Origin: Acaryochloris marina MBIC11017
GTDB taxonomy: Bacteria; Cyanobacteriota; Cyanobacteriia; Thermosynechococcales; Thermosynechococcaceae
Direction: 5' to 3'
Assembly: GCF_000018105.1 (NCBI RefSeq)
Contig: NC_009925.1
Location: 780,001 to 812,000, forward strand
Length of the DNA: 32,000 bases
Under the pieces are notes generated by a model. That model searched no databases. It was not told the DNA's origin and saw nothing but the letters and a program-made list of their open reading frames with translations. Made by a program: the position numbers and the translations under genes. Every line of letters begins with the position of its first letter. The first letter of the stretch is position 1. Shown in pieces: positions 6,008 through 22,741 of this stretch.

Positions 6008-6646
6008 ATGCTGCAAACTCAGGTATCCGTGTCGCCAGCTCCAACCGATTGGCGTCAAGTCTTTGAAGAAGCTTATCAGGGACGACATACATATGACTTC
6101 AAAAGTGGAAGCACTATACCCATGGGACCGCAGGACCTATGGATTGTTTGTCGAGGAATTGTGCAATTAGGGACCTTGTTCGCATCTGGTGATGAAGCTG
6201 TTTTAGGTTTTGTCTACCCAGCAATGCCCTTTGGTTTGCCCTTAACACAGCTGAATCCCTACGAAGCGTTCGCCCTGACTGATGTTGTTCTAATGCGTCT
6301 CAATCAGGTGGAGCTAGAAAGTTCCCCATTATTAGCCCAGGGTGTTCTCCAGCAATTGAGTCGGCGATTGCAGCAAACCGAGGCCATCTTAGCGATGATC
6401 AGCCAACGACGGGTATACGATCGCTTAGTGCAGCTGTTATTGATGCTGAAACAGGAAGTAGGACATGTAACGCCGGATGGTGTGCGTTTAGAGGTGCGCT
6501 TGACCCATCAACAGCTCGCTAACCTGCTAGGCACAACACGAGTGACGATTACCCGATTGTTAGGACTGTTGCGTCAAGAGGGATGGCTAACCATTGATCG
6601 AACTCGGCACTTTGTCATTGCTGATGCCCCCTCTGAAAGCCTGTAG
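6008..6646 (+). CDS. Crp/Fnr-family transcriptional regulator
   Basis: An N-terminal cNMP-binding-like beta-roll region is followed by the C-terminal HTH LTHQQLANLLGTTRVTITRLLGLLRQEGWL. The size (212 aa) is typical. The last roughly 85 nt belong to the left copy of the island-flanking repeat. Confidence 0.85.
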   Translation: MLQTQVSVSPAPTDWRQVFEEAYQGRHTYDFKSGSTIPMGPQDLWIVCRGIVQLGTLFASGDEAVLGFVYPAMPFGLPLTQLNPYEAFALTDVVLMRLNQVELESSPLLAQGVLQQLSRRLQQTEAILAMISQRRVYDRLVQLLLMLKQEVGHVTPDGVRLEVRLTHQQLANLLGTTRVTITRLLGLLRQEGWLTIDRTRHFVIADAPSESL

Positions 6647-6883
6647 GTAGCCGCCCATCCCAATCTTTGCTGGATGGCTTCTGATCCAGACGCGTTGCTT
6701 GTTCCAAAGCCCCTTTCTCTTTGGCTCGTTGGTCATAGGGGTGGAGCTGTTCAAGTATCTATCCTGTCAATAAGCACAAATTATCGAGGGTCACTCCCCA
6801 CATCAGCATATCGATGCACCAGGTTTGTTGGGCCTGTTCCAGACAAGGGGGGTGACCTACTAAGGTGGACATCTCTTCCGTCC
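6560..6883. repeat. Left copy of a ~320-bp diverged direct repeat (crp 3' end, short spacer, 3' end of the TetR-family gene)
   Basis: By-eye alignment with 20342-20657. The crp-derived part is about 70-75% identical. The tetR-derived part is about 89% identical (about 26 differences in about 235 nt). The repeat is also visible in the ORF track: antisense ORFs 6674..6898 (MASDPDALLVPKPLSLWLVGHRGGAV) and 20448..20726 (MASDLDALLVLKPLFLWLVGHRGGAV) begin almost identically. Confidence 0.85.
6650..6883 (-). pseudogene. Decayed 3' fragment (~75 codons) of a paralogue/orthologue of the TetR-recombinase-like gene at 20434..21645
   Basis: The minus-strand translation is TEEMSTLVGHPPCLEQAQQTWCIDMLMWGVTLDNLCLLTG*ILEQLHPYDQRAKEKGALEQATRLDQKPSSKDW. 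The intact gene reads TEGMTTLAGHPPHLEQAQQTWCIDMLMRGVTLDNLSLLTGWTLEQLHPYDQRAKEKAALEQATRLDQKPSSKD*. The fragment has an in-frame TAG where the intact gene has TGG, its natural stop is mutated to TGG, and it has no 5' part. Confidence 0.75.
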
Positions 6884-6961
6884 CATCTCATTGTATGAAA
6901 GGCGATAGGAGCTTATATTCGAGAGAGAATATCAGTGCCTGCTTGAATAGGGAAGCTTGTA

Positions 6962-9900
6962 ATGAGAACTCATCAATACGTTCATAAGAAACGAGCCGCC
7001 CAGTCTTCCTATAACCCTGTTCCTCGATCTTCTAAAGTTCAGTCTTCAGTGCAGCCTCCGGCAATTCAAGCCAAGTCGAATGAAGAGGGTTTAGCTGAAC
7101 ATGCTGAGCGGTTGAGAAAGTTCCAGCGGCTGGGTACTTCAATGATACAAATGGGTCCACCCAGACTCGGGAATGATGAGTCCAGTCCATTACACCCAAA
7201 ACCCTGGCTTCAACGGAAATTGACGCTTGGGCAGCCAGGAGATAAGTATGAACGAGAGGCAGATCGGATTGCATCTCAAGTAGTGCAAACCATAAATCCC
7301 CCTGCTTCAAAAGAAAACATTATTAGGCAGTCGATTCAGCGCGAGAACGACTTAGAAGGGGTAATGTCCGCGAAAGGCTTTCAAGCTGCTATCCAGCGAA
7401 AGCAAGCAATAGCAGGTGGAGAAGCATCATCGGATTTAGAGTCTGCTATCAATAAAGCGAGAGGGAGTGGACAACCATTGAATGCAGGGTTGCAACAGTC
7501 AATGGGTCAGGCGATGCGTGCAGATTTTAGTGGGGTAAGAGTACATACAGATACTCAGTCAGACCAGTTAAATCAATCGATTCAGGCTCAGGCATTTACG
7601 ACGGGGCAAGATGTTTTTTTTCGACAAGGGGCATATCAGCCTGAAAATCAAGCAGGGCAGGAGTTGATTGCCCATGAGTTGACCCATGTCATTCAGCAGA
7701 ATTCTGGAGCGGTGAGAAGGCAACGTCAGTTTAGAAAAAATGATGAACTGCTGCATGGTCAATTTGAGGCAAACGTTAAACCAATGCAGCTTCAACCCAA
7801 TGGTCAATCTACTGATCTCCAAAAGGTTACGCCTGAGCAGAGGAAAGGTCGCCTGGAAGACTTAAACAACATCGATCTGTCAGATGTACAAGTCCTACAG
7901 CAAAGGCAAGGGCGAATAAACCCCATAATGCAGACCCATTACCCTGCGGCAGAGGGAGAGGCCAAATTTATAGAGGCAAAAACAGACCTTATTCAAGGAT
8001 TTACCCCTTCTGATCGGCCCTTCTTAAAAACTAGCCCTGATATGGTGCAGATGGACCGTAAAGAAAAAGTCGATCTTCTCAACCTGACAGTCGGAGAATT
8101 CGAAACCCATCGGAAGGCTGAGCAGATGGACTGGGCCAACGTGAAGAAATTTACAAAAAAAGAACGCAACACCATCTGGCAAATTATCGACTGGCGGCTG
8201 AACGGCTTAGACCCATTCATACTCAAGGATGTCGTTGACAAAGGTAAAAATAGTATAAAAAACCTCCGTAATATGAAGGCCTATTGTGACGGACTCAATG
8301 GCGAACTTAATGGGCAGAAAACCGTTCGACTGGCACCACAGACTACATTGGAAAAAGCCATCTACTACGGACACTGGCTTCAAAAAATTCATGGTCTCCT
8401 TGGGAAACGAACCGAGCTTGTTGTACCGACGAATGTATTCACTCAGTTAGTTGACACTGATTCTGGCAAAGTTGCTGAGGCTTTCATCAAGTACTTCAAT
8501 GAGATGAATCCCAACCTACAAACCCCTTCGGGCAAAGAAATTACATCTTTCATCAAACTTATGCATGAAGAAAAAGCCAAGATCGGGGATTACAAGAACG
8601 TTCTAAAAGACATTCGAAACTTTCATAAGTTTCCCAAGGAATCGCTTGATAAGCTAAAGGCTGATCTGTCCGTAAAGGACAAACCACTAACTCTTATTTT
8701 GCATTCTCTTTACGATCATAATGGCGCTTTTATTCGCCATGAGCATGTTAACAAGGTCATCAAAAACGACAAAATTAAGGTTTATCTCATTGAGGGTCAT
8801 GCTATAGAGAAGGTAAAATCTCTCATCCGTGGTGGATTCCAAGAACTAGCGAAGAAGTATGGCCTTGACGGCAAAATCACTCAGGTTATGGCCGTTGGTC
8901 ACGGTGAATCTACCGAGATTGAATTCGCTGGTGGCGGTACAGAAGTTACTGAAGACGGGGGCAAGACGTCGATCGATCAGAAAGATGTAGTTCCGATAGA
9001 ATTAGAAGGAACAAACGCGCGTGTCTTTGCCCTGTTCTTTGAACAAATTTTCGCCAACATGGAAGAGAAGAAGGGGCTGAAGCCCAAGGTGTTGTTGCGT
9101 GCTTGCCTAAGTGCATCGAATGAGGTTGACGAGAATAAGCTTAAGGAGTTGATGAAAAAAGAGAACATCCTTGATCTTGATGCGGTGGTTGATACAAAAA
9201 CTGCCGAAAATCAGGAAAAGATTCGAGAAGGCATTAGGAAGTACATTGAGAAGCATGGAAGTCTTGCCACAAAATTGGGCGACCAAGCCAAAGGGAGAGC
9301 GGAGGTTCTTGGAGCCCAGTCCTCAATTACATCAGTTGATACAGGTGCAATCAAAGAAGATACTGGCGAGTTGGATTTTATTACACTAGCTGATCCTCAT
9401 GTTGCTGGCCCAAAACTCACTTATGTTCGTCATGGTAAAGAGCCTTCTGGTGCCCTTAGAGCAGTTATTGAGAGCTGGGCAAACGATCCAGTTACTTGCT
9501 TCGCAGAAATGCAGGACCGCATTGATACGGTTCTAGTTAACAGTCATGCAGAGTTCATTATTAACCTTCTCTACCATACATTACTAACCCAGTATAAGAG
9601 TGACATCCTTACAGCAAACAAGTTCACTAAAACAGCCCATGTGCTTATGGGTGTCTTAGAAGGTAAAGATGGCTGCCGCTCTGCCAGACTGGCTGCGGAT
9701 GATATGAGTAAAAAGCACCGTGACGCTTTTTATCCGTTGCTTATTACACATATTACACAGTTTGGGAATGATGCTAGGCCAAAACTTGTGATCTACCAGG
9801 ACTGGATGCTTCATAATGACACTAAGCGCAATAACTTTATGGCGATGCTGGGGATACCCGGCTGTACAAGAACCATAGCCGACAAATACCTTGATTTCGC

Positions 9901-10429
9901 ACTCATCAAGGACTCAGTTGAAACTCTCGTAAAAATGACGGCAGCTCCCATGAAGGCTCGGGTTTTGCTGGCACTATGTGGCTTGATTCGTCAGAACCCA
10001 ATCGAGTCTTGTAAAACCTTTCTTTTGACTCAAGTTAAAGGGGACAACTCCTTAAAGAAAAGCATTACTGATGAGTTAGATGGTTATTCAGTATCTAAGC
10101 TTCGTGACAAACTCGACTTAGAGGAAGAAATCGCGCAACCTGACTCAACCGCTGCCCATCCCAAAAATGTTGGTGGTGAAGGCGAATTTCACGTTAAGCC
10201 GATTAAAACAAAAGTTGAAAAAATAAAAAAAAGCACCCGTAAAAACCAGGCTAAATCACGCATTGAGCCTCGTCAGGATGCCAAAGTCGCGTTAACGCTA
10301 ACCCAAAAGAAGAACTACCATATTGTTGGTGAAGTCGTGAACACTGATGACACTAAAACGGGGTGGTATATGCTCAGGTTGAGTGCCGGGAAAATTGCCT
10401 ATATCGAGCAGAAGTATTTTAGCAATTAG
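6962..10429 (+). CDS. Large multidomain polymorphic-toxin-like protein: DUF4157 (HExxH 'PVC-metallopeptidase') prefix, ~900-aa unknown region containing a His/Cys clan-CD-like module, and an SH3b-like C-terminus
   Basis: 1155-aa ORF. DUF4157 hallmarks span about aa 85-246: LQRKLTLGQPGDKYEREADRIASQVV, then GQPLNAGLQQSMGQAMRADFSGVRVHTDTQSDQLNQSIQAQAFTTGQDVFFRQGAYQPENQAGQELIAHELTHVIQQ. The HELTH codons are at nt 7673-7687. No signal peptide is present. The C-terminus KNYHIVGEVVNTDDTKTGWYMLRLSAGKIAYIEQKYF resembles a bacterial SH3 domain. Confidence 0.85.
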   Translation: MRTHQYVHKKRAAQSSYNPVPRSSKVQSSVQPPAIQAKSNEEGLAEHAERLRKFQRLGTSMIQMGPPRLGNDESSPLHPKPWLQRKLTLGQPGDKYEREADRIASQVVQTINPPASKENIIRQSIQRENDLEGVMSAKGFQAAIQRKQAIAGGEASSDLESAINKARGSGQPLNAGLQQSMGQAMRADFSGVRVHTDTQSDQLNQSIQAQAFTTGQDVFFRQGAYQPENQAGQELIAHELTHVIQQNSGAVRRQRQFRKNDELLHGQFEANVKPMQLQPNGQSTDLQKVTPEQRKGRLEDLNNIDLSDVQVLQQRQGRINPIMQTHYPAAEGEAKFIEAKTDLIQGFTPSDRPFLKTSPDMVQMDRKEKVDLLNLTVGEFETHRKAEQMDWANVKKFTKKERNTIWQIIDWRLNGLDPFILKDVVDKGKNSIKNLRNMKAYCDGLNGELNGQKTVRLAPQTTLEKAIYYGHWLQKIHGLLGKRTELVVPTNVFTQLVDTDSGKVAEAFIKYFNEMNPNLQTPSGKEITSFIKLMHEEKAKIGDYKNVLKDIRNFHKFPKESLDKLKADLSVKDKPLTLILHSLYDHNGAFIRHEHVNKVIKNDKIKVYLIEGHAIEKVKSLIRGGFQELAKKYGLDGKITQVMAVGHGESTEIEFAGGGTEVTEDGGKTSIDQKDVVPIELEGTNARVFALFFEQIFANMEEKKGLKPKVLLRACLSASNEVDENKLKELMKKENILDLDAVVDTKTAENQEKIREGIRKYIEKHGSLATKLGDQAKGRAEVLGAQSSITSVDTGAIKEDTGELDFITLADPHVAGPKLTYVRHGKEPSGALRAVIESWANDPVTCFAEMQDRIDTVLVNSHAEFIINLLYHTLLTQYKSDILTANKFTKTAHVLMGVLEGKDGCRSARLAADDMSKKHRDAFYPLLITHITQFGNDARPKLVIYQDWMLHNDTKRNNFMAMLGIPGCTRTIADKYLDFALIKDSVETLVKMTAAPMKARVLLALCGLIRQNPIESCKTFLLTQVKGDNSLKKSITDELDGYSVSKLRDKLDLEEEIAQPDSTAAHPKNVGGEGEFHVKPIKTKVEKIKKSTRKNQAKSRIEPRQDAKVALTLTQKKNYHIVGEVVNTDDTKTGWYMLRLSAGKIAYIEQKYFSN

Positions 10430-10554
10430 CAACGGTGATTTTAGGCCAATTTTGATAATTAATTTGGAAATATTAACGATTTAGGCCTTCATCTTATGAT
10501 TAAGTCAGTGAAATTCTTTGAGGTTTAGTCTAGTGACCATCTAGAGGCTCATAA

Positions 10555-11454
10555 ATGGAAATTACACTCGACCAGAAAACGACATGGCACCTAGGTGGAG
10601 AGGCTCATGTACTTCATCTCTTAAGGTTAGTTGCCCAAATCAATGATGAAAATTGGTCTGCTGTCAGCGTTGTGCTTGAATGTGCCCCTGTTATCGCTGC
10701 GAGAGGTGAAGAACTGAGCTGGTTTCACAACCGCCTGGAGAGTCGCCTTGATTGGCAAAATCGGCCATTTCTGGAAGATCTGCCTGTTCGGATGGAGATT
10801 GCATTGAGGCCCGAGTACTATCCTCGCTTGCCTTGTCCAAGTTCTGATGCAGTGCAACGTCTCACTGACCTATTTGTAATTGAGCCACCCCCTTCTCCTG
10901 AACTATTCGATGATGCGGTCTGGAATGCGATACAGCTCTGGCAAGAGTACCCTATCGATCCATCGATTGGTGGTGGTACGATGCGGGTTGGCTATCGAAC
11001 AGCGTTTTCTATGTTCACTGACGAGGTTGATCGACTTCGTCGCCGGGGCCCAGTCTCTCGTATTATCGTCGATGCGTTGATTGAGTCTGGTATTCCGATC
11101 TCTTGGATTGAGGAGGATCCGGTTTTTACTGTTACGCTCTATGCTGAAGACCGTGGCTATCTCTGTCGAATTCGTCCCAACGAGTCTTCTTCTGGGATAA
11201 CTGTCAGTGTGGAATGGATAGAGCAGCTCTCTGATGCTGGGGTCGCAAAACTTTCATCACATATTGCTGTAGCTGATACTGACCTCGTTTTCGGTTCCTT
11301 GACTCTAGTCGATGGGCGAATTCGCCTTGATAACCTAACCCTATTAGGGCCGTCTATTACGGAGGAAACGATTATCGAAACTTTGCGTGCTGCAGTATCA
11401 GCTCTCAATAGCAAGGTCAATGAGTGGTCAGAGTTAGATCTCACGGCGGGTTAA
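10555..11454 (+). CDS. Hypothetical protein; candidate immunity protein or chaperone for the upstream toxin-like protein (C-terminal half resembles the YbjN / type III secretion chaperone-like fold)
   Basis: 299-aa ORF, co-directional and 125 nt downstream of the 1155-aa gene. The C-terminal half (RIIVDALIESGIPISWIEEDPVFTVTLYAEDRGYLCRIRPNESSSGITVSVEWIEQL...SLTLVDGRIRLDNLTLL) has the alternating pattern I associate with YbjN/CesT-like proteins. This is a pattern impression only. Confidence 0.65.
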   Translation: MEITLDQKTTWHLGGEAHVLHLLRLVAQINDENWSAVSVVLECAPVIAARGEELSWFHNRLESRLDWQNRPFLEDLPVRMEIALRPEYYPRLPCPSSDAVQRLTDLFVIEPPPSPELFDDAVWNAIQLWQEYPIDPSIGGGTMRVGYRTAFSMFTDEVDRLRRRGPVSRIIVDALIESGIPISWIEEDPVFTVTLYAEDRGYLCRIRPNESSSGITVSVEWIEQLSDAGVAKLSSHIAVADTDLVFGSLTLVDGRIRLDNLTLLGPSITEETIIETLRAAVSALNSKVNEWSELDLTAG

Positions 11455-11461
11455 CCCAAGG

Positions 11462-11575
11462 AATCTGTCAAGACCGGTTAGCGGCTGTTTGAAGCGGCTG
11501 CAGGACAGACCACTGAGATCCGGGACCGGGCCATTCTCTATTAGGGTTCATGCCGGGATAGAGAAATTTTTTCTC
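11462..11575 (+). pseudogene. Short decayed remnant of a tyrosine-recombinase gene (copy B), also the left copy of a nested direct repeat
   Basis: The core 11488-11539 (tttgaagcggctgcaggacagaccactgagatccgggaccgggccattctct) matches 20246-20297 at 46/52 positions by my count. It translates as FEAAAGQTTEIRDRAILY*. RDRAIL is the start of recombinase box I. Flanking homology is weaker. Confidence 0.45.
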
Positions 11576-11600
11576 ACAGAATAGCTGTGAACTATATTTA

Positions 11601-13297
11601 GGGCTTGCTTCGGAAGTCTAAGTTCCAATATTTGCAGTGTATCCAAGTGTTGAGGGCCCTTGAGAAGTGCAAGGAAAATCATTCAAAATATTTAAAACCC
11701 TTGCACCTGCAACCCGATGTATCGCCGTCCATCCCCCGGTCAACTGTCCTTTGAGAACTTCTACTTGCCCTTTGGAGGGAAACTTTCAGGAGAGAATCGC
11801 TGGGTCAAACTAGCCGAGTTGATTCCTTGGGAGAGCTTTGAGTCAGAATATGCAGACCAATTCAGTCAGACCATGGGGGCACCTGCCAAACCCTTTCGTG
11901 TGGCCTTAGGGACCTTAATCATCAAAGAGAAACTGGGTATATCCGACGCAGAGACCGTAGAACAGATTCGAGAGAACCCCTACTTGCAGTACTTTCTGGG
12001 GTTTAGTGAATATCGAGAGAGTGCTCCGTTTGATGCCTCCATGCTGGTTCACTTTCGCCAACGGTTGAATCTAGAGCTGCTAGCTCAAGTCAATGACGCA
12101 GTCGTGGACTCTGTGCTGGCATCCGAGGGGTCTCCTGTGGCGATGTCCCCTGAGTCATCTCCTCCCTCTGACGATGATGAAGATGAGCCTCCTGCCCCTC
12201 CCAACCAGGGCCAATTGTTGATAGATGCGACCTGTGCACCAGCCGATATTCGCTATCCGACAGACTTGGATTTGCTCAATGATGCCCGCAAAGCAAGCGA
12301 AGCCATCCTCGATGCTTTATATGCTCAAGTCATGCTGTCCCTCAAGTGCAAACCTCGCACCTACCGCCAGAAGGCCCGCAAAGCCTATCTGGCCATTGCC
12401 AAAAAACGTCAACCGAGCCGCAAGCTGATTCGTAAAGGGATTCGTCAGCAGTTGGGCTATGTGCGTCGCAATCTAGCCCATATTGATGGGTTGATAACAT
12501 TGGGGGCTTCCCTATCCCAATTGTCCCGGCGGCAGTACCGTCTGTTGCTGGTGATTCATGAAGTCTTTCGACAGCAAGAATGGATGTATCAACAGTCAGT
12601 ACGTCGAGTGGACGACCGGATTGTCAGTATGAGTCAGCCTCATGTCCGACCGATGGTCCGAGGCAAAGCTGGAACACCCGTTGAGTTTGGAGCCAAGCTA
12701 TCCCTCAGTTGTGTGCGTGGATGTGTGTTTCTGGAGCGCTTGAGTTGGGATGCGTTCAATGAATCCCAGCATCTTCAACATCAAGTGGAAGCCTTTCGTC
12801 GTCGCTTTGGCCATTATCCTTTCTCAGTCCATGCTGACCAAATCTATCGGACTCGGGCTAATCGACGATGGTGTAAAGCTCGGGGGATTCGCTTGAGTGG
12901 ACCGCCGTTAGGAAGACCTCAACAAGACCCACAAGTACAGACCCAACTCAAGCAACAAGCGTGTGAGGATGAAAAGGTGAGGGTCCAGATTGAGGGTAAG
13001 TTTGGGCAGGCCAAGCGACGGTTTGGCTTGAATCGAGTGATGGCGAAGTTAGCGGATACGGCTGCCAGTGCGATTGCTATCACGTTCTTGGTCATGAATC
13101 TGGAGCGGTGGCTCAGCCACTTTTTATCGTTCATTTTTGGGGTGGGATTGCTGGTTTTGGAAAGCGTTATGGAGCTGTCAGGACTTCCTTGGGGCTTTGC
13201 TAGGGCCAGTCAAAGGATATGGCTCTGGCCGTCACAAATGGGTTGCTTGTACGATTTGATGCATGGAATTTGCTCAATTTACTTTCTCAGCAAACCC
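11601..13297 (+). mobile_element. IS5/IS1182-like insertion sequence (~1.7 kb)
   Basis: Terminal inverted repeats are IRL 11601-11617 gggcttgcttcggaagt and the reverse complement of IRR 13281-13297, gggtttgctgagaaagt (13/17 matches). TATTTA directly abuts both ends (11595-11600 and 13298-13303) as a perfect direct repeat, consistent with a 6-bp target-site duplication. One DDE transposase ORF fills the element. Confidence 0.75.
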
Positions 13298-13336
13298 TAT
13301 TTAGCAGTACTTTTCAGACTTCGAATTTACAAGTAA
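11717..13336 (+). CDS. DDE transposase, IS5/IS1182-like (N-terminal DUF772-type domain plus DDE_Tnp_1-type catalytic domain)
   Basis: N-terminus SFENFYLPFGGKLSGENRWVKLAELIPWESFE. Candidate DDE residues lie in LLIDATCAPADIRYPTD, VHADQIYRT and VQIEGKFGQAKRRFGLNRVMAKL. The reading frame crosses the IRR, and its stop (13334-13336) lies about 39 nt outside the inferred element end. Confidence 0.9.
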   Translation: MYRRPSPGQLSFENFYLPFGGKLSGENRWVKLAELIPWESFESEYADQFSQTMGAPAKPFRVALGTLIIKEKLGISDAETVEQIRENPYLQYFLGFSEYRESAPFDASMLVHFRQRLNLELLAQVNDAVVDSVLASEGSPVAMSPESSPPSDDDEDEPPAPPNQGQLLIDATCAPADIRYPTDLDLLNDARKASEAILDALYAQVMLSLKCKPRTYRQKARKAYLAIAKKRQPSRKLIRKGIRQQLGYVRRNLAHIDGLITLGASLSQLSRRQYRLLLVIHEVFRQQEWMYQQSVRRVDDRIVSMSQPHVRPMVRGKAGTPVEFGAKLSLSCVRGCVFLERLSWDAFNESQHLQHQVEAFRRRFGHYPFSVHADQIYRTRANRRWCKARGIRLSGPPLGRPQQDPQVQTQLKQQACEDEKVRVQIEGKFGQAKRRFGLNRVMAKLADTAASAIAITFLVMNLERWLSHFLSFIFGVGLLVLESVMELSGLPWGFARASQRIWLWPSQMGCLYDLMHGICSIYFLSKPYLAVLFRLRIYK

Positions 13337-13713
13337 TTGATAGTCCATTCTTTTGGGGGAATGAATATCCATAAGGGTTCCCCGGCCAAATAAAATTACA
13401 GCATTTGAATATGGGAAAGTCAGTGTCACTCGTATTGGCATGATGGCCATTTGCAAGTGTGAAATTTAGTTTTTAACTAGGTTCTAGCGATTTGATCATA
13501 GATAGCCCCCCGGCCATTATGAGCCCTAAGCTGAGCAAGATAACGAGAAGAGGGGGGCATCAGAGACTATTCTTGAATTATGCAAACCAGGAGTGCAGGC
13601 GACCATTAGAATCGCTGAAAACAGTGGAACTCAATGGTCAATGGCAACAGCTCTGATTTCTGCAAACCGCTGCGGAGTATGAAAACCCAGAACAATTTAC
13701 AGATGGGATATTA

Positions 13714-14934
13714 TTAACTCTTAACTGTTTTGCATTGCAATGCGACCAGTAAATCAGAGCCCATTTTTTCTGCAATACTACGCCCTGGGCACTCACGCCG
13801 CTTCGCTTCACCTACTGAGTTAAAGCTGAGTGCTGCCAATAGGTTGTCTCGATGAGGATTGAAGTCTAAGGGGTTCTCAAAGACCGTACTGTCTAGATTA
13901 GCCAACCCGATGTTTGCGGAGAACAGCGTACCCTTGGGAAACTTACGTTTTCGGCCATTGATGGTCACCTCTGTTTCTGTCTGGGCAATGGTATTGATGT
14001 TATTCACTGGCGAGTGTCGACGAGCTGTTTCTAAAACTACTCGCAACACTTCATGACGATTATCTACATCGATCTCCAGATCGCGTGGAACCTTGGCTAT
14101 TAAGGACCGGAGTAAACTCTCACTACCTAGACATCCTGCAATTGCGATCGCTTCCAGTAGCAAAGTACTCAGTTCTGTTCGACTTAAATCATTTTCAGTG
14201 GTTGGAACATACCTACTCATAACAGGAGAGTTCTCAATCAGGTTAAGGGCGATCCCTTCTAATCGTTTAACTTCCTGCAACTTATTAGCAGATGGGGCTA
14301 AAGGTTTCACCCTTGAGATCAGCAATGATTCCTTTGGTTTTGAGGAGAAGAATAGCGTTTTTAGAGATGATAGTTGCTGTGGAGAAAGTTTGACTTCTAA
14401 TAGCACTAACATGATGTATTGGATGACAGTGCGTTGAATGTCATCGCTAATGTCATCTAAAGCCGGAGGATTTCCATGTTGATTAGCAATGGTGGCTAAC
14501 TGATTCAACAGATCTTTAGCTTCTTGGGACTCAGTATTATCAAAGGCTGGTTTAAAAACGACCTCTAAAACGGCTGATCTTGCTTTTTTATGAGTAGTAT
14601 CACCCTTTACTTCTTTATCAGACAGAAAAAGCAAAAAATTCTTAGAGAATCGATCAGGAATGCAGCGAAAACGGCCAATATAAGGTTCTCTTTGTTGGGG
14701 CTCTGCAATGATTTTTGCAGCAAGATTATATTCACCCACAATAATTCTGCCTAAAGCCGCAAAGTTCTGGCCAAAAAGCTGTTGTCTTTTACCTAAAAAT
14801 TCTTGAGGAGTAACAATACTATAACTAATAACATCCACTACATAGAAAAACCTCATAAGCATTGTAGTTAGGATGTTAGGGTGCCGCAATAGACAAATTT
14901 GGATACGGTTTGAGAAACGAATTAATAAACTCAT
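13714..14934 (-). CDS. Divergent cytochrome P450-like haem-thiolate protein (candidate fatty-acid hydroperoxide-converting enzyme)
   Basis: ExxR motif in VVLETARRHSPV and a PERF-like FNPHRD. The Cys-ligand loop is SFNSVGEAKRRECPGRSIA, which is FxxG...CxG with 4 extra residues compared with the canonical FGGSNRRCLG of the P450 at 24662..26026. The I-helix position reads IAGCLGSES and lacks the acid-alcohol (E/D-T) pair. The gene is AT-rich and lies 230 nt downstream of, and co-directional with, the lipoxygenase gene. The start codon is uncertain (M1, M24 or M26). Confidence 0.6.
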   Translation of the reverse strand: MSLLIRFSNRIQICLLRHPNILTTMLMRFFYVVDVISYSIVTPQEFLGKRQQLFGQNFAALGRIIVGEYNLAAKIIAEPQQREPYIGRFRCIPDRFSKNFLLFLSDKEVKGDTTHKKARSAVLEVVFKPAFDNTESQEAKDLLNQLATIANQHGNPPALDDISDDIQRTVIQYIMLVLLEVKLSPQQLSSLKTLFFSSKPKESLLISRVKPLAPSANKLQEVKRLEGIALNLIENSPVMSRYVPTTENDLSRTELSTLLLEAIAIAGCLGSESLLRSLIAKVPRDLEIDVDNRHEVLRVVLETARRHSPVNNINTIAQTETEVTINGRKRKFPKGTLFSANIGLANLDSTVFENPLDFNPHRDNLLAALSFNSVGEAKRRECPGRSIAEKMGSDLLVALQCKTVKS

Positions 14935-15164
14935 AGCTGCCCCATTAATTTATCAACAGAATTGCAAAACATGGTAGTCCTAGAGAAGTAATGACAGGAG
15001 AGGAACATCCTTTATGGCTAGAACTTCTAGGATTCAAACTCTTGAAAAGAGCTTAGCGAAAGGAACAAATTCTGGATAAGCCATTTTGGGAAATGGCCTG
15101 ATTGGTCGGCGTTACCCTTTTTTGGCCAGATCTGAACAAAGCCCTTGATTGGAGAAAGTCAAAC

Positions 15165-17183
15165 TCAGATGTTAATACTCTGAGGGATTTTATTAGGATG
15201 TAGGAAATCATAAAAGGTTGGGCGAACACTGTTCCGTTCATCAATGATGATGCCAATGGCATCTAACTGTTGCTGAAATGCTTTGAGTAGAGGTTGCACC
15301 CTAGTATCCGTAAAGTGCTCTTCTCCATATTCCCCTAATAGGGTGTAGTAAAGAGAACCCAACAAATAGGTCATATCCATCTGGGTCTCTGCCTGTTTCA
15401 GGGAAGGAAGAAGGTTGAAATAGTCTTGAGTGGTTGCCTTTGTTGACTTTGGCGCGGGTCGATATCCCGCTAAAGGCAAGTTGGGGATATAGGTCATATA
15501 AGTCGATTGGGAGAAGTTCACGGCTGCATGTTGGGCACTCCCTGTAAAAATAATGAGCGTCACCATATCTGCCAAGTAAGCTTTAGTGCGCAAGCTAGGT
15601 TGCTCCTGATCCGATGCGGTTTCCCCAATTTCTGTCATGCGCCCTCCGTCTTGAGCGACCATTTCTGCTAACCAAGCTTGGAGTTCGGTGTCCTCTACCA
15701 CATCCTGATCGCTGAGGTAATACAAGTCTAGATAGCTCTCAACCCAATCGTGAATCGCATTCCAAACGAGTAGTGCATCATCTCGATAGGGATAGTCAGG
15801 AAGCTGATCCACATTATCGACCCCCCGTCTGGAGAGTGTGGCGGGTAGCATCGAATCATTAAAACCGTAGGGGAACCCTTGTACGGCTTTAACGCTGAGC
15901 TCTTTAGAAGATTCAATAGTGCCAGACATCACTGAATCCACGGTACCTCCATCATTAACAAGGCCAGAAATGGCTGCATTATTAATAAACAATGTTCCTT
16001 CAAAATGAGGACGCAATAAGGCGCTGAGGGGATGATTAGGGGCCAGTTGACGATAGGTAGCCACTACAATGGGCTCGATCAATAAGTGGGTCCGACCGAG
16101 ATGAGAAATGAGCTCATGGTAATTGCCATCAGCGATTTGAACGATGGTTTTTGCCATCAGCCAAGCCCATTGCTCGGACTGGGGGCTACCCTCAGGGGGT
16201 GGAGTGAAAATAGGATTATCAGAGCCTGGCTGCTGCTGGCACTGAATGGCTACGGCTGTGAGGGAGCCGCTTCCTTCCGCAGGTACTGCAAACAGGGCGA
16301 GGGGAGCATAGACATATTTTTGAGCATCCGGAAAAGTGCCCGGTTCTAATAGGTTCAACACTGCATAATCAGTGATATAAAGTCGCCCCTCTGCTCCAGC
16401 CTTTTGGAGAGAATCAGCAGTTCCCATCACGGCCTGATATTGATCGTTAGTGACAGGGAAGTGGTCTGGTAATCTCTTGCATTGTTCTAGAACTAAAGGG
16501 TTCGCTCCCGCAACTCGCTGGGCGACAAAGGCTCGATCTGTCCAGAACTGTTGGCTAATACAAGGCAAATAAATAATCTGAAACAGATCGTTATAGGCTT
16601 GAAAGAGTTGGCTGTAGTCTGACAAACTGTCTTGGGCTTGCTTAGCCTGCATAGCTAAAGCTTGATGGTCGAGCTTCTGCTGCTCTTGAGCATGGTCTCG
16701 GGGATCTTTGACCTCAGAGATTAATGTTTCCAGTAACGGCTGGTGGATATCGTTCACTTTGGCCGAGGGGGTTTGGGAACTGTTTTGCTCAATGGAGGGT
16801 GGTTTGCCATCTTGCAAGCGTTGAACCAACCGAATAATTGGCAGAACTTTGGCTAACAAAAACTTCAAAAAGCCAGCACGTTTAGGGTTATTCAAGAAAC
16901 GGGTGACACGGGTAAGCCAGGCAAATCGGCGGAGTTTTCGGACAGAACCTGTTTCATTAACGTCTTGTAAAGCTTGGTTAGCATCTATTCTCAGCAGCAG
17001 AGATAAGGCATCTTGAAGCCAAGGAAATTTGCCAAGGGATTGATCTTGTGGGGGCACTTTCTCGGCCATTGCCCCGCCATTAGGGAGGTAAGTGTAGTTA
17101 TAGCGATAGTCTCGACGAGCAGCCACTAAAGCCGTTTGCCGTTGAACAGGATTGGAATCATTTTGAGGTAGAGAGATATTCAT
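15165..17183 (-). CDS. Lipoxygenase (bacterial type, no PLAT domain)
   Basis: Iron-ligand motifs WLMAKTIVQIADGNYHELISHLGRTHLLIEP (HxxxxH) and GSAQHAAVNFSQSTY (H...N). The C-terminus IPQSINI ends in the Ile that supplies the carboxylate ligand. The track ORF begins at a TTG at 17204; the first ATG is at 17183 (MNISLPQ). Confidence 0.95.
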   Translation of the reverse strand: MNISLPQNDSNPVQRQTALVAARRDYRYNYTYLPNGGAMAEKVPPQDQSLGKFPWLQDALSLLLRIDANQALQDVNETGSVRKLRRFAWLTRVTRFLNNPKRAGFLKFLLAKVLPIIRLVQRLQDGKPPSIEQNSSQTPSAKVNDIHQPLLETLISEVKDPRDHAQEQQKLDHQALAMQAKQAQDSLSDYSQLFQAYNDLFQIIYLPCISQQFWTDRAFVAQRVAGANPLVLEQCKRLPDHFPVTNDQYQAVMGTADSLQKAGAEGRLYITDYAVLNLLEPGTFPDAQKYVYAPLALFAVPAEGSGSLTAVAIQCQQQPGSDNPIFTPPPEGSPQSEQWAWLMAKTIVQIADGNYHELISHLGRTHLLIEPIVVATYRQLAPNHPLSALLRPHFEGTLFINNAAISGLVNDGGTVDSVMSGTIESSKELSVKAVQGFPYGFNDSMLPATLSRRGVDNVDQLPDYPYRDDALLVWNAIHDWVESYLDLYYLSDQDVVEDTELQAWLAEMVAQDGGRMTEIGETASDQEQPSLRTKAYLADMVTLIIFTGSAQHAAVNFSQSTYMTYIPNLPLAGYRPAPKSTKATTQDYFNLLPSLKQAETQMDMTYLLGSLYYTLLGEYGEEHFTDTRVQPLLKAFQQQLDAIGIIIDERNSVRPTFYDFLHPNKIPQSINI

Positions 17184-17610
17184 AAGACCAAATGTGACTA
17201 ACAACAGCGTGAGGGGAAAAGGTTTAGGGGAAAACGATGAAAGCTACTTCAAAAAGGTAGAAACTAAAAAAAAATGGCGAAAAGTAATTAATTTCTTCTG
17301 ATTTTGTCCATTACTGGGGTGTATCCAGTTTTTATAGGAGATGCATGGGCAGTAGGAGAGTGAATTCAGGTAATTGTGATTCTCTACAGCAGGAATGTAA
17401 ATAGGTAGATAAGGGGACCGTCTACCACAGAACTAAGCGTACTTTTACTGCACTAAAAATGGCGTGATCTATATCAAAGTTTCCCTGAATAATTTTCTAA
17501 TTTATTGACTTTATAATTCTGGAGGTAACTGACCAAGAAAATTATTAGGAGTGGTTATATAAGTTGATTAAAGTTGCAATATTAATTTCTACATTTTTCC
17601 TTTCCTGTTA

Positions 17611-17865
17611 TTAAGCAGCCTGGAATATTTCTGCGATTTCACTAACACCGCTGATGAATTTTTTTCTTTTTTCAGATAGAGACACGAATTCTGCGATATG
17701 ACTGCGAGATCTCAAAACGTGACTCACCTCATCTACGGCTTTGCAGAAAAGGCACTTCCGGGGGTTAGTACTCCACTGGATATTGTCTGGTGGAGTACTA
17801 ACCCGTACTCTTGCCTCTTGACTACTGATAGACACTGACAAAGAGGGTTGCACCGGGTTGATCAT
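17611..17865 (-). CDS. Hypothetical small protein (84 aa), questionable
   Basis: Its only ATG start overlaps the 3' end of the lysozyme/LDT gene by 44 nt in another frame. The one notable feature is a CxxC pair (CLFCK). No recognisable family. Confidence 0.3.
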   Translation of the reverse strand: MINPVQPSLSVSISSQEARVRVSTPPDNIQWSTNPRKCLFCKAVDEVSHVLRSRSHIAEFVSLSEKRKKFISGVSEIAEIFQAA

Positions 17866-19327
17866 ACAAAGGCACCACTTTGTCTCTTAAATCTTGGTTA
17901 TGCATTCTAATGCAGCCTAGGGTGGAGAAAAGAGCTTGCTTTGGTGCCCAAGCTCCTGGCCATCCGCAACCGCTGCCGCCGCCGTGGAGCATAATGCCTG
18001 CCCGACCCAGGTTGGCTTCTTGGTTTTCGAGTTCAACTAAATCGAGACTATACCAGCCATAAGACATGCGATCGCGGGTATAGGCAGAACTTTCACCCGC
18101 TTGCTCATAGTCGCGATAAATTTGCCCACATTTGTAAAGACCGGCGGGGGTATCCCCATGACGGCCAAAGTAATTGTCCTCAAACTGACCACGACAGAGA
18201 CAGGTCAATTCCCACATTAGCGTGCCGCTATAGTCGTAACACTTGATCTTGCCAACGGCATCATTGGCCACCAGATGGTAGTCTCCGGGCTTAAAGCCAT
18301 GGGCATCCGGATGGGACTTGGGACCTTTCATCCCTGCAATAATATTGGCTTGGCGAGGACCAGCCGATGGGGTGGGTTGCGAGACGGTTATCGTTGGTTC
18401 AAAACCTACTACCCTCGGTGGGTTTGTTTTGAGTCGCTGTTCAATGGGTTCGCAATCCTGGGCCGTTTGAATTTCCTGGGCAGCGGCGGCACAGGCGGTG
18501 GTCGGTGCTTCGCCACACCAGACTTTGGCCTCGGCATATCGACGGCGACCCAGCCCCACTTCCACATTTTCGCTGGGGTTGCGATACATCATCAGGGTGC
18601 CGGGAACCGCCTGCCAATCTTTGTCTTTTAAGTTGCGGGTGATGGTTCTATGGTTCGGTGATCCATAAAAATCAGCACCATTGTTATAGGCAAAGCTGGT
18701 CAGTGCGGCTCGTTGTAGATCAGTCATGTCGTCCCAATAAGGGATGGTCGATTGCAGCTTGAGCCAAAAATCTTTGTGGCAAATATAGTCGTACAGGTCA
18801 TCTGCTTCAGCTTGGGTGATGATATCTCCCATTTGGATGGCTGACCCATTTTTATAGTAGGTACTGCCCCAACCGATGGTGACGGGTAAGCCCCCACTGC
18901 CAGCCCTTGGATCCGGGTAAGCTTGGATTCGCCCGTCCGGTAATTTCCGTTGACAGCCTTCGTAAAAGTGGTTGAGTTGGGCTACTTCCGGCGGTAATAA
19001 CGGAGCAGAGGGAGTCTCTGGTTGAGAGGGAGTAGAAGCTGGAGCCAGGGCAGAAACGGGCTGCTGTTCCCATGCATCTTCTGGAATATCCCATGAGATG
19101 GGATTGATATACCGTTTGACACCCGTTTCAATGGTTGGGTAATGGTCATGCCAGGTATAAGGCCCCGCCAAGATAATCTCAGCCAACTGTGAATTGACAG
19201 TAGACACTTTGATAACGCCTAAGATTCCCCCCTCATAGACTTTTGCGAGTTGATTTAATTTTTGAAGGTGGGGTTGGTGTGGTAGGGGTGCCAGGAGTGT
19301 ATTCTTTTTCGCTGTGATAAATGGCAT
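17822..19327 (-). CDS. Fusion protein: unknown N-domain, Pro-rich linker, GH24 (T4/lambda-type) lysozyme domain, YkuD-type L,D-transpeptidase catalytic domain
   Basis: GH24 catalytic region: NHFYEGCQRKLPDGRIQAYPDPRAGSGGLPVTIGWGSTYY (Glu, Asp, Thr triad pattern) followed by LTSFAYNNG. YkuD region: HGDTPAGLY...GIMLHGGG...STLGCIRMHNQDL. The catalytic Cys codon is the complement of 17912-17914. No signal peptide is present. Confidence 0.9.
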   Translation of the reverse strand: MPFITAKKNTLLAPLPHQPHLQKLNQLAKVYEGGILGVIKVSTVNSQLAEIILAGPYTWHDHYPTIETGVKRYINPISWDIPEDAWEQQPVSALAPASTPSQPETPSAPLLPPEVAQLNHFYEGCQRKLPDGRIQAYPDPRAGSGGLPVTIGWGSTYYKNGSAIQMGDIITQAEADDLYDYICHKDFWLKLQSTIPYWDDMTDLQRAALTSFAYNNGADFYGSPNHRTITRNLKDKDWQAVPGTLMMYRNPSENVEVGLGRRRYAEAKVWCGEAPTTACAAAAQEIQTAQDCEPIEQRLKTNPPRVVGFEPTITVSQPTPSAGPRQANIIAGMKGPKSHPDAHGFKPGDYHLVANDAVGKIKCYDYSGTLMWELTCLCRGQFEDNYFGRHGDTPAGLYKCGQIYRDYEQAGESSAYTRDRMSYGWYSLDLVELENQEANLGRAGIMLHGGGSGCGWPGAWAPKQALFSTLGCIRMHNQDLRDKVVPLYDQPGATLFVSVYQ

Positions 19328-19695
19328 TACCAGCCCTCCTGTAAAACGGCGGTTAATTCTTTCTCAGGGGTTTGGACCTTGATCACTTTGGATGTAGTTG
19401 AGACCATCTCGGTGGAAGGCACCGTTACAGTTGGAGATGCTGCTACTGTTGTTGGAACCGCTGAATTCAATACAGGCTTCTCGTCACGCTCGGAGAATTT
19501 TTGCAAGCCCTTCATACCTGCACCGCCAATGGTTAAGGCCCCGGTGAGGATGTAAAGGTTTTCGGAAAAGGTCTTCCCTCGCCATTCACCAGCGGCCAAA
19601 GTAATGGCGAGACCCAATCCCACTAATACTGATGCAGTGGTCTGCAGTCTGCCTGAGGATCGCTTACCTTTAGCATCTTGTAATATCCCGGTCAT
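19327..19695 (-). CDS. Small two-TM membrane protein, holin-like candidate
   Basis: The likely start is the ATG at the complement of 19693-19695 (MTGILQDAKGKRSSGR), preceded by AAGGAG 7 nt upstream. The track's longer ORF (to 19776) has no such RBS. TM1 is TTASVLVGLGLAITLAAG, TM2 is LYILTGALTIGGAGM, and the tail is hydrophilic. Its stop overlaps the start of the lysozyme/LDT gene (TAATG), which implies translational coupling. Confidence 0.6.
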   Translation of the reverse strand: MTGILQDAKGKRSSGRLQTTASVLVGLGLAITLAAGEWRGKTFSENLYILTGALTIGGAGMKGLQKFSERDEKPVLNSAVPTTVAASPTVTVPSTEMVSTTSKVIKVQTPEKELTAVLQEGW

Positions 19696-20094
19696 ACATA
19701 ATCTCCTTGAATAGCGATAGATGGTGTTGTGTTTTGCTGCAATCCTCTGATTTGTGCAGATATCCCTAAGACTCAAGACACGTATCGTTAGCCGATCTGG
19801 TGAAAGCTATTCGATACTTCAAATCAGTCTTCAAATTCTTGTGGCATTAGTCTATTTCCAAGAGAAATAGTGAATTAGCCCTAAGGATTGATTTGAGCTG
19901 ATTTCTATCTGAATTAGAGCACCCGTTTTAGGGGTATTCAGTGATATATGATGATTTTCAAGGTGATTGTGAGCACATTTTGTGTGTTCACTGTGGTTGA
20001 GACTGTAACCGTCTGGAGCAGACCTATTAACTAAAATTGCTCTGATGTACGGCTGCACACTGAAAAATGGTACAGCCGATAGTTGATGCAAGGC

Positions 20095-20341
20095 TCCGTG
20101 GGCGCTGTCTTGATCGCGATCAAGAGCTTCTTTTCCGGGTTGATAAAGGCAGGGTATATCGAGGGTAACCAGTGCAGCCATCAGTATTCCGGTTACGCCA
20201 GAAACGGAATGGAAGAACCTGGCATTGTTTCAGGTGGAAGCATTATTTGAAGCGGTTTCAGGCTAGGCCACTGAGATCCTGGACCGGGCCATTCTCTGTT
20301 TGATGATCTATGCAGGGGTAAGGGCTGAGGAAATCTCTCTT
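20095..20341 (+). pseudogene. Decayed tyrosine-recombinase (integrase) gene remnant (copy B'), truncated after box I
   Basis: One frame from about 20098 reads GAVLIAIKSFFSGLIKAGYIEGNQ, resembling the core-binding-domain helix (..LRSFY.YL...G.I..NP). After a frameshift the next frame reads AAISIPVTPETEWKNLALFQVEALFEAVSG*ATEILDRAILCLMIYAGVRAEEISLL. This matches the box I consensus RDRAIL.LL..TGLR..EL..L, including the catalytic Arg. It contains a stop and a frameshift and ends abruptly at the crp-fragment junction (20341/20342). Confidence 0.55.
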
Positions 20342-20418
20342 TTAGGCAATCTGCGGCAGGAGGGGTGGCTGTCCATCGACCGAACACGGCATTGCTGATG
20401 CCCCCTCAGAGAGTCTGT
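20342..20418 (+). pseudogene. Orphan 3' fragment of a crp/fnr-family gene
   Basis: It translates LGNLRQEGWLSIDRTRHC*, against LGLLRQEGWLTIDRTRHFVIADAPSESL* in the intact gene at 6008..6646. An 8-nt deletion relative to the intact copy causes the premature stop. Most nucleotide differences before the deletion are synonymous. Confidence 0.7.
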
Positions 20419-20657
20419 AGGTAGCCACCCAGCTCAATCTTTGCTGGATGGCTTCTGATCTAGACGCGTTGCTTGTTCTAAAGCCGCTTTTTCTTTGGCT
20501 CGTTGGTCATAGGGGTGGAGCTGTTCTAACGTCCACCCCGTCAATAAGCTCAAATTATCGAGGGTCACTCCCCGCATCAGCATATCGATGCACCAAGTTT
20601 GTTGGGCCTGTTCCAGATGGGGAGGGTGACCTGCTAAGGTGGTCATCCCTTCCGTCC
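20342..20657. repeat. Right copy of the ~320-bp diverged direct repeat (crp 3' fragment, spacer, genuine 3' end of the TetR-family gene)
   Basis: See the left copy (6560-6883). Homology ends at about 6883 / 20657 (tccgtcc, then the sequences diverge). Confidence 0.85.
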
Positions 20658-21645
20658 AGCTTTTCCACCGATCAGCCAGTGTTGTCGGCGTCAGGGGCTG
20701 TTGCTGATCATCCACAAACATTGTAGGTTCATCATCTTTGCGAGATTTTAGCCATTTGGTCAGGGGATTGGAAGTATAGGAGCCAACACGTTTCCCCATG
20801 ACCCACTGATTGACGGCTACCTGGCGGCTGGCCTGGATTTGCAGCAGATGCTGTTGATTATTGCTGATCTGTTGCGATCGCAATAACCCGATCACTTCGG
20901 GTGATGATAAACCTGCCCCAAATAAAACATAGGCCAGAGCATGATCTTGGGTACTCTGTTTCTTGGCTTGTCGGAGAATAAGATGAACGGTTTCCGCAGG
21001 CAAATCAGCCACGGTTGTGGGCTGTGGGGGAGAATCTCTGAAAGTGTCACTTGCAATACTGCCAAACAGGATCATCTGCACCGCATGCTCTAAAAAGTCG
21101 TCTTGGTGATGCCATAGCTGATGGTATTCACTGGTGAATTCGATAACGGCATACCCGAGCAGCAAGCATTCCAATAAGCTTGCCAGTTTTTCCGTTGAGA
21201 ACTGGGGGGTTAACTGCCGCTCAGCCATAAAGGATTCTAGATACTGAGCCATATATTGGGTGATTTCTGTCATCCGCTTTCCCAAGGCCAGTCGATTGTC
21301 GGCGGGGTATTGGTTGGCTTCTCCTACTAGAGATCGAATTAAATCAGGCACTTGCTCTAATGCATGCAAGCAATAACTTGCATATTCTTGAAAGGCTTGC
21401 TCCGTTGATGCAGCGGACTGATTTTGACGGTTCAGGGCCTGTCCCAGGCTCTGAAAAGCCGTTGACTCTTCTAAGACCCCCAATAAAAGGCCATGTTTAC
21501 TGCCGAAATGCCGAAACAGCGTCACTTCGTTCACTTCGGCGGCTTCAGCAATTTGGCGGGTGGTCGTTCCACTAATTCCTTGAGTAATAAAGAGCTGAAG
21601 AGCCGACTGAATCAAGCGTTGGCGAGTTGATGACTGAGAAGACAT
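20434..21645 (-). CDS. TetR/AcrR-family regulator fused to a C-terminal catalytically degenerate tyrosine-recombinase-like domain
   Basis: N-terminal TetR HTH: RQRLIQSALQLFITQGISGTTTRQIAEAAEVNEVTLFRHFGSKHGLL. The C-terminal ~200 aa follow the recombinase catalytic-domain pattern. The box I-like segment DHALAYVLFGAGLSSPEVIGLL has Ser where the catalytic Arg should be. The box II-like segment LEQAQQTWCIDMLMRGVTLDNLSLLTGWTLEQLHPY has Q..Q in place of H..R, GW in place of GH, and keeps the Tyr position. Confidence 0.9.
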   Translation of the reverse strand: MSSQSSTRQRLIQSALQLFITQGISGTTTRQIAEAAEVNEVTLFRHFGSKHGLLLGVLEESTAFQSLGQALNRQNQSAASTEQAFQEYASYCLHALEQVPDLIRSLVGEANQYPADNRLALGKRMTEITQYMAQYLESFMAERQLTPQFSTEKLASLLECLLLGYAVIEFTSEYHQLWHHQDDFLEHAVQMILFGSIASDTFRDSPPQPTTVADLPAETVHLILRQAKKQSTQDHALAYVLFGAGLSSPEVIGLLRSQQISNNQQHLLQIQASRQVAVNQWVMGKRVGSYTSNPLTKWLKSRKDDEPTMFVDDQQQPLTPTTLADRWKSWTEGMTTLAGHPPHLEQAQQTWCIDMLMRGVTLDNLSLLTGWTLEQLHPYDQRAKEKAALEQATRLDQKPSSKD

Positions 21646-21718: not shown

Positions 21719-21807
21719 CTATTACTTTACCCAGTATTCAAACAAAAAGCGAGGCCCACCTCTGCAGATATGGGCTAGCGTTGTTCATCTTTTTTCATAG
21801 GACTGTT

Positions 21808-22665: not shown

Positions 22666-22687
22666 CAGTTTCAAAAGAAGCTTTTCG

Positions 22688-22713
22688 AACTCCCAGAGCC
22701 GGCTCTGGGAGTT
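22688..22713. terminator. Perfect 13-bp-arm palindrome between convergent desC and grx; candidate bidirectional terminator
   Basis: The sequence aactcccagagcc|ggctctgggagtt was read directly. It lies 23 nt after the desC stop and 29 nt after the grx stop. The U-tracts are poor on both strands. Confidence 0.5.
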
Positions 22714-22741
22714 CTTCTATAGGTCCAGATAGATCCAGACT

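Follow-up and report, generated by a model that had tools for sequence, protein, structure and literature searches.

An island inserted in the 3' end of a Crp-family gene of Acaryochloris marina MBIC11017 and its diverged flanking repeats

The locus and its duplicated gene junction

We analysed a stretch of 32,000 nucleotides (nt) from Acaryochloris marina MBIC11017 (contig NC_009925.1, positions 780,001 to 812,000). This whole stretch is referred to as the window, and all positions below are those of the window. It contains an accessory island in the end of a gene of the Crp/Fnr family (crp), which is convergent with a tetR-like gene. The island is flanked by two copies of the junction of these genes, and the right copy is preceded by the remnant of an integrase. 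The main features are as follows (aa, amino acids; related genomes and loci are labelled with an L number).

6008–6646, + strand: functional crp of the Crp/Fnr family, 212 aa (Pfam HTH_Crp_2 and Crp)
~6050–6612: tract of later allelic replacement in crp (from sliding identity and mismatch lists), with its right end inside the left repeat
6560–6883: left repeat copy, the more diverged and apparently the extra one (crp codons 185–212, a 13-nt spacer and a dead tetR 3' fragment)
6660–6883, − strand: dead tetR 3' fragment of ~74 codons (a W codon changed to TAG, the stop lost by a change from TGA to TGG, ~10 amino-acid changes)
20077–20340, + strand: tyrosine-integrase pseudogene of 264 nt, covering aa 35–124 of a 398-aa protein, with a frameshift and a stop; it abuts the right copy
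20341–20657: right repeat copy, apparently of the undisturbed junction type (displaced original crp 3' end at 20341–20420, a 13-nt spacer and the real tetR 3' end)
20341–~21000: recombinant tract, 96% identical to the group of A. marina S15 and 'Moss Beach' and 77% to L057
20434–21645, − strand: functional tetR-like gene, 403 aa (TetR_N and a degenerate recombinase-like C-terminal half)

An initial annotation of the window had described the insertion as flanked by diverged copies of the crp/tetR junction in direct orientation, and these repeats were recovered by comparing the window with itself. With blastn, 6570–6883 aligned to 20352–20657 over 314 columns at 86.3% identity (35 mismatches, one 8-nt gap, E 5e-105). 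When 6500–6950 and 20280–20720 were aligned with MAFFT, the homology reached out to ~6560/20341; its other end was at 6883/20657. The gap-free part of the repeat (6616–6883 versus 20390–20657, 268 nt) was 90% identical. The stop positions of crp and tetR are 13 nt apart in both copies. One stretch of 35 nt inside the repeat is identical between the copies. Short-read (Logan) assemblies of these strains often end ~100 nt past the crp stop, inside the repeat (L038–L045, L052).

The content of the copies was as initially read. The left copy holds the real end of crp and a dead piece of tetR, with its in-frame TAG and lost stop. The right copy holds a dead piece of crp and the real end of tetR. 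In this crp piece, an 8-nt deletion is followed by a premature TGA (...DRTRHC*). The deletion is specific to the lineage of this strain and does not occur in CCMEE 5410 and L067.

The two parts of the repeat differ in different ways. In the crp part, 16 of 84 positions differ between the copies of this window. As eight invariant positions are deleted, this corresponds to 16 of 76 aligned positions (79% identity, or 71% with the gap counted). Most of these differences (12/16) are at third codon positions, with a synonymous rate (dS) of ~1.0 and a non-synonymous rate (dN) of 0.06. The tetR part is ~90% identical (dS 0.23, dN 0.075), its differences are distributed 6:6:10 over the codon positions and there are ~10 amino-acid changes, one of them a stop. 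The initial estimates of identity (70–75% for crp and about 89% for tetR) were about right. The statement that many differences are synonymous holds for the crp part and fails for the tetR part.

The site of the insertion, first placed between crp and tetR, is codon 184/185 of crp. The left copy contains the final 28 codons of this gene (6560–6643), and the protein has the same length (212 aa) as its homologues P0001–P0006. The target gene is thus kept intact by the copy on the side of the element. The flanking direct repeats are a duplicated 3' part of the target gene, as an integrative island of the e14/phage 21 type requires.

The tyrosine-integrase pseudogene at the right edge had been overlooked in the initial annotation. 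A 53-aa fragment of it was 85% identical to integrases on plasmids of A. marina S15 (tblastn with Acaryochloris plasmid integrases). Its sequence ends at aa 124 exactly at the joint, and the crp fragment (codon 184/185) continues its reading frame. The microhomology at this joint is only ~2–5 nt (CT.TT). A second integrase remnant was found within the island, and the two remnants form a second, shorter repeat that the initial annotation had not listed (11488–11542 versus 20246–20300, 55 nt, 87%). Two remnants suggest two accretion events. A third junction remnant was sought between the two cargo modules of the island, and none was found. Two open reading frames (ORFs) overlap the integrase pseudogene in antisense (109 aa at 19852–20181 and 64 aa at 20193–20387, both on the − strand) and are probably not genes.

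Related genomes and the history of each copy

Relatives with adjacent crp and tetR, as anticipated in the initial annotation, were found. In ten or more related genomes (L001–L003, L056, L057 and L058–L064), the two genes are adjacent and convergent, with full synteny of the flanks. L058–L064 include A. marina S15 and 'Moss Beach'-type genomes. Therefore, the block of ~13.5–13.8 kilobases (kb) is a true insertion. The spacer between crp and tetR at these empty sites is 92 nt in L056/L057 and 9 nt in L058–L064.

The island and the same repeats are present in the three closest lineages: this strain with A. marina MBIC10699 (AP026075; 99.7–99.8% identical to the window), CCMEE 5410 (L036/L046; 94–96%) and L051/L053/L067. 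The flanks of the island-bearing lineages are 94.6–95.9% identical to the window, and the nearest genomes with an empty site are at 92.6% (L057) and 89% (L056). All three island-bearing lineages, which differ by 4–6%, agree in the joint of integrase and crp and in the right copy. Because the three closest lineages have the same junctions, the island is old, fixed in the clade and vertically inherited since its arrival, and it appears to be immobile. The mobile insertion proposed at first holds as an insertion and not as an actively mobile element, since neither the fragments nor the joint differ among these three lineages. In part, this is the outcome that the initial annotation had named as evidence against its own reading.

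From its first base to its last, the right copy matches the empty junction of the S15/'Moss Beach' group collinearly, at 96%. Given this match from the very edge, we read the dead crp piece as the original gene end, now displaced. The right copy would then be the undisturbed junction and the left copy the extra one, which keeps crp whole. The similarity to the S15 group is confined to a tract: past ~21000, the window is 95–98% identical to L057 and only 86–88% to S15. The crp/tetR junction is a variable, recombination-prone site in Acaryochloris.

Unrelated cargo was seen at the same junction in other Acaryochloris species. In L004, it occupies 11209–19902 (8.7 kb) and comprises genes for a LysR, a flavodoxin-like protein, an isochorismatase, an esterase and a sensor kinase. 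In L018, it occupies 11265–16228 and comprises multicopper-oxidase-like genes. There were no mobility genes in the junction cargo of L004 or L018.

The working crp of this strain has a history of its own. Within the tract 6050–6612, the window is 100% identical to CCMEE 5410. Compared with L051, the identity is 95–100% up to ~6050, 76–87% across crp and again 98–100% from ~6600. In lineage L051, no more than 7 of 84 positions separate the working crp end from the displaced fragment. Thus, this strain has a later recombinant allele as its working crp, with the right crossover inside the left repeat. The position of this crossover explains why the identity of the repeat steps from ~75% to 90%. 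The replacement by another allele also accounts for the large synonymous divergence of crp between the copies and for the apparent coding history of the orphan crp piece elsewhere.

Between close lineages, crp is 76–87% identical and its neighbours 95–100%; yet, this strain and CCMEE 5410 have the same crp sequence (100%). This pattern points to repeated allelic exchange of crp.

The initial annotation had regarded both orphan fragments as immigrants from a lineage in which they evolved as coding sequence. This was rejected for crp, whose fragment is a resident-type end, and it was not supported for tetR, whose fragment has the pattern of decay. With the S15 group as reference, the tetR part has 18 fixed changes specific to the left copy, one specific to the right copy and two specific to S15. 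The 18 left-specific changes affect 15 codons (seven synonymous and eight non-synonymous, including the gained and the lost stop), with a distribution of 4:5:9 over codon positions and 15:3 transitions to transversions. These changes look like roughly neutral decay and not like coding evolution.

The ages of the copies were compared by three-way counts. The left branch had 23 changes at 246 near-neutral sites, and the right branch had three at 132 (p ~0.007–0.01). Fixed changes confined to the left copy numbered five in crp and 18 in tetR, against two and one for the right copy. The five in crp are all synonymous (P ~0.001 under neutrality), so the left crp piece would have evolved as a working gene end while the adjoining tetR decayed. 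By these counts, the left copy seems to have spent longer as a working crp end with a dead tetR than the right crp fragment has spent as a dead piece. The longer left branch favours, with moderate weight, an incoming and already diverged copy over a duplication in situ.

Contents of the island and neighbouring genes

The island consists of two modules separated by an insertion sequence (IS).

6884–11601: module A (eCIS_core protein, its partner and an integrase remnant)
6962–10429, + strand: eCIS_core (DUF4157) protein, 1155 aa (Pfam E 2e-31)
10555–11454, + strand: 299-aa partner of the eCIS_core protein, 28% identical (E 1e-51) to the L068 gene downstream of a distant homologue
11488–11560, + strand: second tyrosine-integrase remnant of ~75 nt (~aa 91–116), at the end of module A
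11602–13297, + strand: ISAcma17, IS5 family (NCBIfam IS5 E 4e-132)
13298–20076: module B (P450-like gene, lipoxygenase, lysozyme/YkuD protein, small hypothetical protein), followed by the integrase pseudogene
13714–14934, − strand: divergent cytochrome P450-like protein, 406 aa (Pfam p450 E 4e-10 over 65 residues; weak PDB and NCBIfam P450 matches)
15165–17204, − strand: lipoxygenase, 679 aa (Pfam Lipoxygenase E 8e-69)
17822–19327, − strand: lysozyme and YkuD (L,D-transpeptidase-like) protein, 501 aa (family matches)
19327–19776, − strand: hypothetical protein, 149 aa (ORF only, no family match)

The composition profile called for in the initial annotation gave a guanine-plus-cytosine (GC) content of 45% for the cargo and 48% for the flanks, with a modest tetranucleotide shift.

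Full-length relatives of the 1155-aa eCIS_core protein were found only in the island-bearing strains and in distant cassettes. The protein diverges fast among the island-bearing strains (84–99%). Together with a downstream partner of ~300 aa, it forms a conserved two-gene cassette (window 6962–11454, L068 4864–8956 and L069 8001–12146), and the L069 counterpart of the 299-aa partner has a YbjN domain. The distant homologues in L068 and L069 lie in unrelated contexts, and no integrase was found near them.

ISAcma17 is a late insertion. It is flanked by a 7-nt target duplication (TATTTAG at 11595–11601 and 13298–13304), is 99.9% identical to a plasmid copy and is missing from L053 and L067, both of which bear the island. 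At the same site, CCMEE 5410 has an inverted copy of the IS5 family (L036 15580–17277), which is only 92% identical, while the flanks are 96–98% identical. TATTTAG may thus be a hotspot at which a second element inserted independently or one copy replaced another.

The lipoxygenase and P450-like genes (13714–17204, − strand) lie in the part of the island with the lowest GC content (~40%). Together, they may form oxylipins. A perfect 15-nt inverted repeat with a 13-nt loop (17762–17804) separates the lipoxygenase gene from the lysozyme gene and is probably a terminator.

The C-terminal half of the TetR-like protein resembles a degenerate catalytic domain of tyrosine recombinases. Weak PF00589 matches occur in many homologues, and the NCBIfam XerC match of this protein covers residues 223–343 (E 6e-4). 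Across cyanobacteria, >1700 homologues were found at E ≤ 1e-100. Wherever the 5' flank of a cyanobacterial locus was available (L001–L019), the gene is divergently paired with a fatty-acid desaturase, which in the window is at 21781–22665 (+ strand). The desaturase gene is separated from a glutaredoxin gene by a perfect palindrome of 28 nt (22687–22714), which is probably a terminator. Further to the right, a 376-aa protein of the CobA/CobO/BtuR family has an internal 84-nt repeat (30358–30441 versus 30880–30963, 76%), consistent with a tandem duplication of two domains.

Possible origins and comparison with known systems

We consider it somewhat better than an even chance that the island is a degraded integrative one: DNA bearing an integrase and a copy of the junction, inserted by a Campbell-type event or by one-ended homologous recombination. 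The structure, the empty sites, the integrase remnant, the common junctions and the recombination tracts are observed; we infer the arrival of the left copy with the incoming DNA and the order of events. The process would have started with DNA related to Acaryochloris plasmids that carried a tyrosine integrase and the cargo (eCIS_core protein and partner, lipoxygenase and P450-like genes, lysozyme/YkuD protein). This DNA would also have borne its own, already diverged copy of the junction, with the 3' end of crp, the spacer and the 3' end of tetR. The incoming copy may have paired with the resident junction, followed by a Campbell-type single crossover or one-ended homologous recombination. 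As the left side is scarless and in frame, homologous pairing is required there. crp would have been cut at codon 184/185, with the left repeat supplying the last 28 codons and bringing in the dead tetR piece. The original crp end would have been moved 13.8 kb away, next to the intact tetR. The illegitimate joint between the middle of the integrase and crp may have formed at insertion or by a later loss of the rest of the integrase and of the attachment region, which would have left the island immobile. Two routes fit: a Campbell-type integration (site-specific or RecA-mediated) with a subsequent deletion from mid-integrase to codon 184, or a one-step event that was homologous at one end and illegitimate at the other. 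Later, the crp allele would have been replaced in the lineage of this strain, ISAcma17 inserted and 8 nt deleted from the dead crp piece.

Two other origins were considered. A simple Campbell crossover inside the repeat of 320 base pairs (bp) is unlikely, as the resident-type right copy puts the crossover within ~10 nt of the edge. A composite transposon or another IS-mediated origin was rejected, because ISAcma17 is single, internal and recent and has no copy in the island-bearing L053 and L067.

Several results weigh against an integrative island. Neither an intact copy of the element nor an attP-like circle was found, nor was a conserved core for the crossover. Since the right joint falls within the reading frame of the integrase, it cannot be an attachment (att) core, and no attL/attR core can be defined. 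Among the plasmids of PLSDB, the cargo and the left copy gave only matches to the IS and short matches to the eCIS_core domain, and a 28-mer specific to the left copy had 0 matches in one metagenome scan. The asymmetry in age becomes marginal when only pseudogene sites are counted (left 18/224, right 2/84, p 0.06–0.12). A later import of S15-like sequence could have refreshed the right copy and mimicked a younger age, and the exchange with the S15 group may have gone in either direction.

A duplication in situ is the foremost of the alternatives, although we regard it as rather unlikely. Here, the arrival of the cargo at a staggered break or a repair event would have duplicated ~320 bp, and the copies would then have diverged and been reshaped by later imports. 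Both copies have the 13-nt spacer and the end of the 403-aa tetR, unlike the 92-nt spacer of L056/L057. The differences of the dead tetR piece are almost all derived and look like neutral decay, the rate test on pseudogene sites alone is not significant and an S15-like import ending at the boundary of heterology could explain the young-looking right copy. Such an import would, however, be an extra event that had to end exactly at the edge of the island. Target duplications of 320 bp are rare, and the left branch is consistently longer, at pseudogene sites as well as at synonymous sites (p ~0.01). The view that the copies are not recent duplicates is retained from the initial annotation, and an extra copy arriving with the DNA remains the best reading. 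We give still less credence to a single event of homology-facilitated illegitimate recombination, in which linear DNA from a related strain was anchored in crp and its far end was joined by microhomology inside the integrase, with no site-specific recombination. This predicts a left side that is scarless and in frame, as expected of a homologous crossover, and a right joint with ~2–5 nt of microhomology inside the integrase ORF; both were observed, but this pattern would equally result from integration followed by deletion. Events of this kind usually delete recipient DNA next to the anchor and do not duplicate it. They also leave unexplained why a truncated tetR piece already lay beside the cargo in the incoming DNA, and natural transformation of Acaryochloris was not documented in this analysis. 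The mechanism itself is a defined one (PMC3240628). That the island is still active and excises through its two repeats is very improbable. The 314-bp direct repeats could support a RecA-mediated deletion, and empty sites with a short spacer exist. However, the integrase is only a 264-nt pseudogene, the junctions are identical in three lineages and have diverged together with the genome, and the flanks of the genomes with short-spacer empty sites are only 83–93% identical, so these are not recent products of excision.

A further, speculative idea concerns the site and not the single event, and we think it improbable. The crp/tetR junction might be a dedicated landing site of plasmid-related elements that bear an integrase, use a captured two-gene junction as an attachment arm and repair crp on entry. 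If this were true, successive arrivals would explain both the two integrase remnants and the unrelated cargo of L004 and L018.

No description of this island was found by literature search. The locus is a worked example of how a cyanobacterial chromosome gains an accessory block (a toxin-like eCIS_core cassette, a lipoxygenase/P450-like pair and a cell-wall enzyme) while the target regulator gene is kept. It also illustrates that diverged flanking repeats can mislead: what seemed to be a foreign coding history is an artefact of later allelic replacement in the neighbouring live gene.

The one-step mechanism described above (PMC3240628) resembles the present case in having one end of homology, one joint of short microhomology and DNA of a related strain. 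It differs in that the anchor region is duplicated here, the incoming DNA had an integrase and the event cannot be reconstructed experimentally. Islands exchanged through recombination in flanking core genes resemble this one in that the flanks are mosaic and change sharply (here at ~6050 and 6612 in crp and at ~21000 in tetR) and that other species (L004, L018) have unrelated cargo at this junction. Unlike here, recombination of the flanks alone yields no duplicated junction.

The closest analogue is the insertion of e14/phage 21 in icd of Escherichia coli, where the element supplies the gene end and the resident end of 163 bp persists as a pseudogene (PMC6379469; PMC13626634). Both elements entered a protein-coding gene near its 3' end and keep it working with a slightly different end of their own, and both are associated with a tyrosine integrase, of which only a pseudogene is left here. 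In each case, the resident gene end now lies beyond the element as a pseudogene (icd'/icdC in E. coli), which results in diverged direct repeats. Unlike in icd, the duplicated piece covers two convergent genes (~320 bp versus 163 bp) and the cargo is not phage-like. Moreover, the integrase is a remnant fused illegitimately to the displaced fragment, there is no recognisable att core and excision is not expected. The insertion in crp is of a known kind and involves no new mechanism.

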